Positions 11,597 through 53,920 are shown, counted from the whole stretch's first letter. The stretch: DNA of 62,817 bases, filler included, from a candidate division TA06 bacterium SM23_40 (GCA_001303705.1; 6 parts of 6 records of this genome joined end to end with filler, not necessarily neighbours in it); one strand, 5' to 3'. The notes: generated by a model from the sequence alone, not told the origin. Program-made: numbers and translations.

Positions 11597-11696
11597 NNNN
11601 NNNNNNNNNNNNNNNNNNNNNNNNNNNNNNNNNNNNNNNNTTAATTAATTAANNNNNNNNNNNNNNNNNNNNNNNNNNNNNNNNNNNNNNNNNNNN
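11597..11696. other. artificial contig spacer
   Basis: N-run + TTAATTAATTAA (stops in six frames) + N-run, 100 nt. Confidence 0.98.
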
Positions 11697-25301: not shown

Positions 25302-25401
25302 NNNNNNNNNNNNNNNNNNNNNNNNNNNNNNNNNNNNNNNNNNNNTTAATTAATTAANNNNNNNNNNNNNNNNNNNNNNNNNNNNNNNNNNNNNNNNNNN
25401 N
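25302..25401. other. artificial contig spacer
   Basis: N-run + TTAATTAATTAA + N-run. Confidence 0.98.
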
Positions 25402-34167: not shown

Positions 34168-34267
34168 NNNNNNNNNNNNNNNNNNNNNNNNNNNNNNNNN
34201 NNNNNNNNNNNTTAATTAATTAANNNNNNNNNNNNNNNNNNNNNNNNNNNNNNNNNNNNNNNNNNNN
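34168..34267. other. artificial contig spacer
   Basis: N-run + TTAATTAATTAA + N-run. Confidence 0.98.
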
Positions 34268-42986: not shown

Positions 42987-43086
42987 NNNNNNNNNNNNNN
43001 NNNNNNNNNNNNNNNNNNNNNNNNNNNNNNTTAATTAATTAANNNNNNNNNNNNNNNNNNNNNNNNNNNNNNNNNNNNNNNNNNNN
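42987..43086. other. artificial contig spacer
   Basis: N-run + TTAATTAATTAA + N-run. Confidence 0.98.
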
Positions 43087-52274: not shown

Positions 52275-53819
52275 TCAATCGCCGCAATATGATCGCGATC
52301 CTGAAACCGCGGGACCGATGACCTGCCCCGGAGCTCTCACACGCAGCCGGAAGCTATCCTCATCGATAACCTCATCGGGGGAGAATCCGATCCCGGCCCG
52401 GTACAGATATCGGCCGTGCGGAGCAGATGGCGGCACTGCATGAGATCGAAAAATCTGGGCCGTATACTGCCCGGGGAGGTGAACCCATATCGGCCCGAGC
52501 ACTCTCACTGATTGCCCGGCCGGCAGCGCGGCCTGTGAGGCGAACCAGAATTCCCGGGCGGCCGGCCTGCGGTTGATGAACGTGTAGATCACGCCGACCT
52601 TTCCCGCCGGCGCGACATCTGGTCCGTCGGGGCTAATGTACAGAGTGATCGAGTCACCCTGATCGAAGAAAAAGGCACCTATGTCACTGCGCGTGCTGTC
52701 GGGATCGTTCAGCACGGGATCGCCACTGTCGATACAGGGCGACTCCCAGAGCAGGCGGCAGTCATCCCACGCCGGGAAGACGAATAACGGATCTGCATCG
52801 ATGTTCCCCTGCCCCGGCCAACCGCCCTCGACATCACAGTAGGTGAGGACGGGCGAGGAGTTGTACGGATAGACCTCATCAGGGGTGTTGTCCCAGAGGA
52901 TGGTATTGTTGATGAACGGCGAGGCGTAACTGCAGAAGATGCCGCCTCCGAACAACAATGCTTCATTGCCCGCTACGGTATTGCCGCGAAACTCAAGCGG
53001 GGGAGAATAGATGATGGCGCCTCCCCCCGCATCTTCCGCTACGTTGCGGGCGATGAGATTTCCGATGACAGAGGGACAGGCGTTATGGTAGACAGACAGG
53101 CCGCCTCCAGCCAGGGACCAGTTTTCGATGACGCGGTTCTCGAGCAGTTCTGCCAGCCCCTGATCACCGACATGGATCCCCCCGCCGAAGAGCAACGCCG
53201 AGTTGTCGCGAATGAGGTTTCCTGCGACGAGCGGCGCCCCGGATACCGCGTGCACGCCCCCGCCACATCCATAGGCCACATTCCCGACGATGACGTTCTC
53301 AACGACAGTGGAACCGTCCAGCTCGCAGCGGATCCCGCCGCCGCCGCACCCCGTTCACCCTCCCGTCGATAAGTTGGCCTCGATCCAGTTCCGCGTAATC
53401 GTGGGAGACCCATACCCGACGAAGATGCCGGCACCGTGCTCGGTCTCATTCAGTGTGATGATGCACTCCTCGATCGTGGGCGAGGAGTAGAGGCAGAGGA
53501 TACCCGCTCCGATGAGCGGCACCTTACCTTTCCGGATCGTGAGCCCTCTCAGAATCGAACCAGGACCTTCGCCCGAGTGGAAAACAAACCCTCTCCCCTG
53601 GCGCTCGCAGTCGATCCCCGTCTTCTCCGGGCCGTGTTCCGAGGTGACGAGTATCGCCCGGCCCCCGAAGTCGATATCTCTGTTGCCCGGGCCCGTGAAC
53701 CGACCATCGGCGATGAGAACGGTATCGCCGTCGACTGAAGCATCGATGCCCTGTTGAATGGTGGAGAAATCCCCGGGAATGTGGATGATCGCCCCCTCCA
53801 CAGGCGCTGCGACCAGGGC
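52275..53819 (-). CDS. secreted right-handed beta-helix protein with in-frame TGA at 53355-53357 (candidate selenocysteine); 5' truncated
   Basis: IPGDFSTIQQGID..GDTVLIADG N-terminus; GGGI repeats continue in one frame across TGA; GNIDADPLF...SPCIDSGDP...DIGAF; shared C-terminal domain. Confidence 0.8.
53325..53344 (-). promoter_or_regulatory. putative bacterial SECIS-like hairpin
   Basis: GCGGCGG-CGGGAT-CCGCTGC, 11-30 nt downstream of the in-frame UGA. Confidence 0.35.
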
Positions 53820-53820
53820 G

Positions 53821-53920
53821 NNNNNNNNNNNNNNNNNNNNNNNNNNNNNNNNNNNNNNNNNNNNTTAATTAATTAANNNNNNNNNNNNNNNNNNNNNNNN
53901 NNNNNNNNNNNNNNNNNNNN
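53821..53920. other. artificial contig spacer
   Basis: N-run + TTAATTAATTAA + N-run. Confidence 0.98.

Follow-up and report, generated by a model that had tools for sequence, protein, structure and literature searches.

The gene at 52275-53819 and its internal TGA

The window analysed here, a stretch of 62,817 nucleotides from the candidate division TA06 bacterium SM23_40 (GCA_001303705.1), carries on its minus strand a gene (52275-53819) whose reading frame is interrupted by a single TGA at 53355-53357. The sequence comparisons described below indicate that this UGA is very probably a genuine selenocysteine (Sec) codon in a family of secreted beta-helix proteins. The source genome, hereafter G000, consists of 2.88 Mb of 60% GC DNA in 189 contigs and is 89.8% complete. 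The window is an artificial join of six of these contigs (C55, C56, C57, C59, C60 and C61), and the gene lies on C60.

Reading from 53819 to 52275 on the minus strand, the TGA is the only internal stop of the frame. The two open reading frames called at this locus are, as the original prediction pointed out, halves of one frame split by nothing else: the translation runs through TRNWIEANLSTGG, the stop and TGCGGGGIRCELD, i.e. NWIEANLSTGG-TGA-TGCGGGGIRCELD, or NLSTGG-U-TGC-GGGG-IRCE when the UGA is written as Sec. The Cys that had been noticed three residues after the stop is indeed there, forming a U-x-x-C arrangement, and the rungs NVAYGCGGG, NSALLFGGG and NVAEDAGGG quoted from the same protein are all found in the translation. 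The additional Cys of the next rung (YGCGGG), to which attention had also been drawn, is present but is not conserved in the family (alignment A1). Secretion is not visible in the window, where the 5' end of the gene is cut; it is borne out by a near-identical contig of another assembly (L094), which supplies the missing N-terminus MQIPSSKGGRLLLLLGLGIALVAAPVEG, and by the signal peptide found at the start of every complete homolog. The features of the locus are collected in Table 1.

Table 1. Features of the candidate selenoprotein gene (window coordinates).
Feature	Position	Strand	Remarks
Candidate selenoprotein gene, 5'-partial	52275..53819	minus	514 codons and terminal TGA, from translation; contig end and N linker on the 5' side
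Signal peptide tail, ALVAAPVEG (putative)	53793..53819	minus	Deduced from the near-identical contig L094 (frame start ...MQIPSSKGGRLLLLLGLGIALVAAPVEGAIIHIPGD); remainder beyond the contig end
In-frame UGA, putatively read as Sec	53355..53357	minus	Partial-protein residue 155; TGA also at the homologous codon of the paralog and homologs
Cys codon of U-x-x-C, three residues after Sec	53346..53348	minus	Invariant (32/32) in alignment A1, conditionally, since this Cys belonged to the search pattern
23-nt stretch GGCGGCGGCGGGATCCGCTGCGA	53323..53345	minus	Identical in two G000 paralogs; starts 10 nt after the TGA; flanks diverged
Core hairpin of the putative Sec insertion sequence, GCGGCGG-GAU-CCGCUGC	53325..53341	minus	7-bp stem, GAU triloop, in codons for GGG-I-R-C
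C-terminal beta-sandwich domain, ~110 residues	52329..52652	minus	Many own-genome matches span only residues ~390-497; strands 438-542 in the P0122 model
True stop codon, TGA	52275..52277	minus	Not followed by the hairpin motif

The internal TGA is reproducible. Contigs from 4/4 runs, belonging to four studies and covering 53278-53819 or more, all read TGA at this codon; they are free of differences from the window in 53278-53501, a segment that includes the TGA and the hairpin, and strain variants differ at a dozen sites in the adjoining segment 53205-53277. The TGA is also present in L094 and L059, from independent assemblies. The sequencing runs listed included none of RNA. An error of sequencing or assembly, with TGG, TGC or GGA as the true codon, is vanishingly improbable against these data, even though G000 is a draft bin of 189 contigs and small lesions (a TAG at C117:1919 and a TGA at C117:11160) do occur elsewhere in it, as the original prediction had cautioned of the assembly in general.

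Conservation of the TGA and of the hairpin that follows it

When the read-through protein was searched against all six frames of G000, 152 matches were obtained, which reveals a hugely expanded paralog family. A tandem expansion of beta-helix genes, with more than ten copies, occupies the 20.6-kb contig C117, and further paralogs lie on C79, C128, C185, C65 and C89. The C65 paralog is complete, from its signal peptide to a terminal TAG, and contains TGA at the same codon (C65:3172-3174), in the context NNTALGT-U-GIC-GGGG-IRCEDS. The two Sec paralogs are 43-48% identical (46% in one comparison), which is no closer than the non-Sec paralogs (41-47%).

The family was then sought with a DNA pattern, TGYGGNGGNGGNGGNATHCGNTGYGA, that encodes C-GGGG-I-R-C-D/E and leaves the upstream sequence unconstrained. 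In metagenomes, the pattern found 55 loci, 16 of them unrelated and 39 of them beta-helix rungs (N-x-S-x-x-x-...); the latter include two from G000's own contigs as well as L094 and L059, near-identical copies from other assemblies. TGA was in frame in 39/39 of these rungs, three codons before the Cys in 37 and four codons before it in two. The same scan applied to one genome per species returned 33 loci, of which 14 were unrelated and 19 were rungs, again with TGA in frame in every case (19/19; 17 at -3 and 2 at -4). Among the rungs recovered by the two scans combined, the codon is an in-frame TGA in 58/58, never Trp or a variable residue, and this is more than chance. These related genes, which number in the dozens, come from sediment bacteria. 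The outcome agrees with the Sec reading put forward in the original prediction.

Loci L070, L077, L126 and L130 have the loop variant U-x-x-x-C (HGT-U-FTT-C, TNT-U-VST-C), in which the hairpin sequence is unchanged and lies 3 nt farther from the UGA. Four loci (L056, L063, L067 and L103; AV-stop-RGCGGGGIRCDHPSD and AV-TGA-RG-CGGGGIRCDHPSD) have TGA at -3 outside any rung context, and were judged to be chance matches. They are identical short frames that encode the same peptide with differing synonymous bases (GGCGGCGGAGGGATACGATGC); L103 is titled Candidatus Faeciplasma gallinarum. Screening the whole genome for frames joined by TGA, scored on codon usage, was abandoned as too unspecific: it returned 257 candidates and missed the C65 case.

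The hosts identified in the species-genome scan include Tariuqbacter arcticus (two genes), a Calditrichaeota metagenome-assembled genome (MAG; one gene) and five further MAGs; one MAG has four genes. All eight host genomes fall within one GTDB phylum, represented by 79 genomes. G000 is outside these 79, and relatives of it were found only at the level of the domain; the family therefore occurs in at least two phyla. Over a 94-residue region around the Sec, the homologs are 31-45% identical to the window protein.

These observations bear on the possibility that the TGA is a nonsense mutation in a decaying paralog. In its favour, the family is hugely expanded (152 matches in 2.88 Mb) and includes broken copies (C117:1919 and C117:11160), and in 60% GC DNA no other nonsense codon arises as easily as TGA. 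When the G000 family copies were surveyed for internal stops flanked by at least 40 aligned residues on each side, five were found: the TGAs of the two Sec rungs, the TAG at C117:1919, the TGA at C117:11160 and a dubious TGA at C117:6655. The stop at C117:11160 (NGSA-stop-WGGG) was weighed as a possible third Sec site but dismissed, for it lacks the motif and the frame decays about 50 codons on. What makes a pseudogene most improbable for the window gene is that TGA occupies 58/58 rungs from many assemblies, at 31-45% identity and with frames intact on both sides; divergence of this order excludes copies of one dead mobile sequence.

The original prediction also described a 7-bp hairpin with a G-containing loop just after the UGA. 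This hairpin is confirmed by the consensus fold of 32 unique 72-nt contexts: its stem pairs +17..+23 with +27..+33 (the U of UGA being 1), it begins 13 nt after the UGA, and it encloses the triloop GAU. On its own it has a minimum free energy (MFE) of -10.6 kcal/mol. The exact hairpin motif occurs at two places only in G000, on C60 and C65, and the remaining GGGIRC rungs of this genome differ from GGCGGCGGCGGGATCCGCTGCGA at 3-4 of 23 positions.

The hairpin is conserved at synonymous sites. Although the pattern left third positions free, 32/32 contexts have C at +21, G at +24, C at +27 and C at +30. Position +18 is C (30) or U (2), either of which pairs with G32, and +33 is C (29) or U (3), either of which pairs with G17. 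Outside the stem, by contrast, synonymous sites are scrambled (+9, C10/G11/U11; +12, C12/U20; +15, A24/C6/G2). Elsewhere in these genes the codon shares are 0.43 for GGC and 0.19 for GGG among Gly codons, 0.54 for ATC among Ile codons and 0.32 for CGC among Arg codons. The invariance of the synonymous sites of the stem, set against the scrambling of the flanking ones, therefore points to a constraint acting on the nucleic acid, the peptide GGGGIRC being largely a by-product.

A hairpin so placed is what is expected of a bacterial Sec insertion sequence (bSECIS). The published constraints on such elements (PMC13188914) are a loop of 3-9 nt, a stem of 4-16 bp, a G in the first two loop positions, a spacing of 16-37 nt between UGA and loop, and an MFE of at most -7.5 kcal/mol. 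All of them accommodate the window hairpin, with its 7-bp stem, 3-nt GAU loop, 20-nt spacing and -10.6 kcal/mol. A search of Rfam with 53150-53450 of the window gave 0 matches at E <= 10.

Export, Sec machinery of the hosts and the search for a Cys form

The product of the C65 gene, P0122, which is 46% identical to the window protein (P0001), was modelled with AlphaFold2 from a 70-sequence alignment (pLDDT 92.5, pTM 0.89). The model shows an unbroken right-handed beta-helix, to which a beta-sandwich is appended at the C-terminus. The loop that contains Sec176 has 11 residues (173-183), whereas those of the other rungs have 2-5, in keeping with the earlier remark that the Sec rung alone carries a longer insert. 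P0122 scores 60.4 bits against Pfam Beta_helix PF13229 (cut-off 25.9) and P0001 24.8 bits against NosD PF05048 (cut-off 23.6). The NosD model TIGR04247 gave 22-41 bits against a cut-off of 300, so that the protein is no NosD orthologue, and no selenoprotein model of NCBIfam release 20 matched any of seven family members. Foldseek aligned the P0122 model with pectate lyase Pel9A, PL6 alginate lyases, phage tailspikes and AlgE4. These matches are to the generic beta-helix only (TM 0.2-0.36, identity 10-16%) and therefore give no functional assignment.

In addition to the N-terminal signal peptide, a type A sorting domain of the type IX secretion system (T9SS) is found at the C-terminus, downstream of the TGA, in 4/5 homologs scanned; Por_Secre_tail TIGR04183 scores 27.6-44.2 bits in L064, L068, L079 and L086, above the cut-off of 23. 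P0001 and P0122 gave no match to the T9SS sorting domain (TIGR04183 / PF18962), and their C-terminal beta-sandwich has no match in Pfam and NCBIfam. Placed where most homologs have the T9SS sorting domain, the beta-sandwich may be a lineage-specific sorting or anchoring domain. It recurs (...LTLYLTPD...GVTYT.INR...) at the ends of dozens of otherwise differing G000 proteins, with copies on many contigs (e.g. C60:76-390, C126, C76 and C24).

This layout argues against a further explanation, in which the locus holds two genes, one for a short secreted N-terminal protein that ends at the TGA and one for an independently translated downstream protein. The halves are indeed called separately, and P0002 (334 aa) and P0007 (306 aa, 60% identical) stand alone as proteins. 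However, where no contig end truncates the locus, the open frame extends over about 200-270 codons on the upstream side of the TGA and over 260 to more than 510 on the downstream side. The break falls inside one beta-helix rung, and translation could restart no earlier than 12 to more than 100 codons past the TGA, at a codon whose position varies among loci and is not conserved. The downstream half would moreover have an export domain and no signal peptide, and the upstream half the reverse. Two separate genes are scarcely credible under these circumstances.

The original prediction left its reading dependent on Sec machinery in the genome, and this machinery is present. selA and selB adjoin on contig C5 of G000 and, like the tRNA-Sec and selD, score above curated cut-offs. 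The tRNA-Sec gene (77.7 bits, C58:183-274) lies directly upstream of selD (C58:439-1365), both outside the window. The selD gene is itself of the Sec type, with an in-frame TGA at C58:469 (TCAG-U-ASK) and a candidate SECIS of its own (6-bp stem, triloop GUU, +31..+45). Among the other host genomes, selA scores above cut-off in 8/8 and selB in 5/5 tested. TGA is at the same time the commonest true stop of G000, ending 538/1034 open frames of at least 400 codons. It is thus an ordinary stop there and there is no global recoding, as the earlier remark that many genes end in TGA had implied.

Could the UGA nevertheless be recoded without Sec? A conserved TGA and a hairpin do not by themselves specify the inserted residue. 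The hairpin might stall the ribosome or promote read-through with Trp, Cys or Arg, or else termination might be regulated so as to yield a deliberately truncated N-terminal fragment; that the searches made found no Cys homologs fits this view. Sec-independent recoding or regulated termination is nonetheless very unlikely, given the Sec machinery in all nine host genomes examined, the agreement of the hairpin with bSECIS geometry, the presence of U-x-x-C, the Sec redox motif that occurs most often in Table 1 of PMC13188914, and the position of the export domain downstream of the UGA.

Two full-length selB genes are present in 10/79 genomes of the host phylum, 6/8 carriers of the Sec-rung pattern versus 4/71 non-carriers; these genomes are kin, so that the counts are not independent. 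selA is likewise found twice above cut-off in 6/8 carriers (G041-G048), and a seventh has a partial second copy at a contig edge. G000 has one selB only. In a quick SelB tree, the two copies of each two-copy genome belong to two different clades, next to one of which the SelB of G000 forms a long branch. The carrier label is not clustered on this tree (11 changes versus a shuffled mean of 11.8), which therefore does not show a dedicated SelB. One hypothesis is that the second Sec-insertion set may serve the invariant hairpin.

A Cys form of the loop was sought in several ways. None was found in six frames of G000, nor among 309 proteins collected in three protein searches. Pattern matches were about as numerous as control matches, and none lay in a rung, both in five host genomes (5 versus 7) and in the 79 genomes of the host phylum (7 versus 8). 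A profile of alignment A1 run against 1.84 billion representatives retrieved giant multi-repeat beta-helix proteins, with no C..CGGGG among the 150 matches listed. A first region-restricted protein search (208 candidates) contained no intact counterpart of the Sec rung among its matches; a second gave two matches among 75 candidates, which stand outside the motif inspection. Cys homologs aligned with Sec are usual and serve as a filter in prediction tools. According to the deep-Sep paper, Cys homologs now seem to exist for all known selenoproteins, and the method may miss selenoproteins that lack them. The absence of a Cys-for-Sec homolog is unusual for a selenoprotein, yet it does not contradict the Sec reading.

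As to the window as a whole, the six contigs are separated by N runs with the linker TTAATTAATTAA, at 11597-11696, 25302-25401, 34168-34267, 42987-43086 and 53821-53920. Genes on either side of these joins are not truly adjacent.

The selenocysteine reading and known systems

Several points weigh against reading the UGA as Sec. The figure of 58/58 is conditional on the GGGGIRC motif, and relatives without the hairpin, any Cys forms included, are invisible to the scans. The searches, which were non-exhaustive, yielded no rung with a C-x-x-C-GGG(G) loop. The stem never varies on both sides, so that what is observed is conservation of synonymous sites without compensatory covariation. An A at +21 in L114 (G042) and L131 (G044) breaks one stem pair. 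GC-rich Gly, Arg and Cys codons form hairpins readily, and the GGGIRC rung at C117:11235 could fold similarly. Broken copies exist in the family (the TAG at C117:1919; the TGA at C117:11160, with frame decay), but they are without the motif. Finally, selenium incorporation, a redox function for U-x-x-C and the substrate are inferred. L131 also has the loop UAU; the hairpins of L114 and L131 may be weaker SECIS elements or may belong to decaying copies.

With selenocysteine as the preferred reading, the following picture can be proposed. The gene would encode one secreted protein of about 540 residues, made up of a signal peptide, a right-handed beta-helix and a C-terminal beta-sandwich. The UGA would be decoded as Sec by the bacterial SelB/tRNA-Sec system, and the insertion signal would be the 7-bp hairpin with its GAU triloop, which coincides with the Gly-Gly-Gly-Ile-Arg-Cys codons. 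The peptide GGGGIRC(D/E) and the synonymous sites would be frozen across the family because the SECIS hairpin is encoded there. Sec would sit in the 11-residue Gly-rich loop inserted in one rung (G-[GT]-U-x-x-C-GGGG) and, together with the Cys three residues on, would most likely form a selenenylsulfide, redox-active or else binding a metal or chalcogen, that is exposed at the surface of an extracellular or cell-surface protein.

A more ambitious proposition is that there is no Cys counterpart at all, that the frozen 17-nt SECIS dictates GGGGIRC, and that a phylum of the LCP-89/Calditrichota type has a second, dedicated SelA/SelB pair. I regard this combination as doubtful, if possible. If it were true, the T9SS-displayed beta-helix would bear, in its Sec loop, an extracellular site for redox reactions or chalcogen binding with an obligate need for selenium.

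Decoding would follow the known bacterial mechanism. The family, by contrast, is absent from the 2026 catalogue: it consists of secreted beta-helix proteins, very probably selenoproteins, whose genes are split in two by gene callers. Of the 119 prokaryotic families or subfamilies of selenoproteins in Table 1 of the 2026 review (PMC13188914), none is a beta-helix, NosD or PMP-repeat domain protein, in agreement with the earlier statement that this fold was not known among characterised selenoprotein families. Full-text literature searches yielded nothing relevant linking selenoproteins or selenocysteine to beta-helix, T9SS or Calditrich. The right-handed beta-helix and a secreted location, mostly as T9SS cargo, would thereby be added to the known selenoproteome. 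Gene callers and Cys-homology filters would miss whole families of this kind, and the present one may be an exception to the universality of Cys homologs; hundreds of 'truncated hypothetical proteins' in sediment metagenomes would be halves of one protein. Its nucleotide-invariant SECIS offers a simple DNA probe for the family and a clean substrate for tests of SelB-SECIS recognition, duplicated SelA/SelB included.

Comparison with bacterial U-x-x-C selenoproteins decoded through SelB and bSECIS (Sec-thioredoxin, DsbA-like, GrdB and others; PMC13188914) brings out both the common mechanism and the difference in context. Like them, the window family combines an in-frame UGA, a downstream hairpin in the coding region and U-x-x-C, and it depends on selA, selB, selC and selD in the genome. 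Unlike them, it is a beta-helix rather than thioredoxin-like, its Sec is placed in an inserted Gly-rich loop of a repeat rung, it is exported, mostly as T9SS cargo, and no homolog with a Cys loop was found. Its hairpin resembles the consensus bacterial SECIS (bSECISearch model; prototype, E. coli fdhF) in that stem, loop, first-base G, spacing and MFE are within limits. The loop, however, is GAU instead of the commoner G[G/U], and, whereas bacterial SECIS elements bear little mutual sequence resemblance (PMC13188914), that of the window family is nucleotide-invariant over 17 nt in at least two phyla.

In its protein architecture, the family resembles beta-helix surface proteins (PF13229, NosD PF05048 and the Chlamydia PMP repeat PF02415), with which it shares the fold and the rung motif N-x-[AS]-x(2-4)-GGG-[ILV]-x-C; none of these families has a member entered as a selenoprotein in Table 1 of PMC13188914. 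Sec in envelope or surface proteins of anaerobic sediment bacteria has precedents in the TonB-dependent receptor of FCYXU type, GSU2204/MtrB-PioB and the GOS_C/Omp28-related family (PMC13188914). The folds and motifs of those families are unrelated to the beta-helix with its U-x-x-C loop, and, in contrast to the window family, they have Cys homologs.

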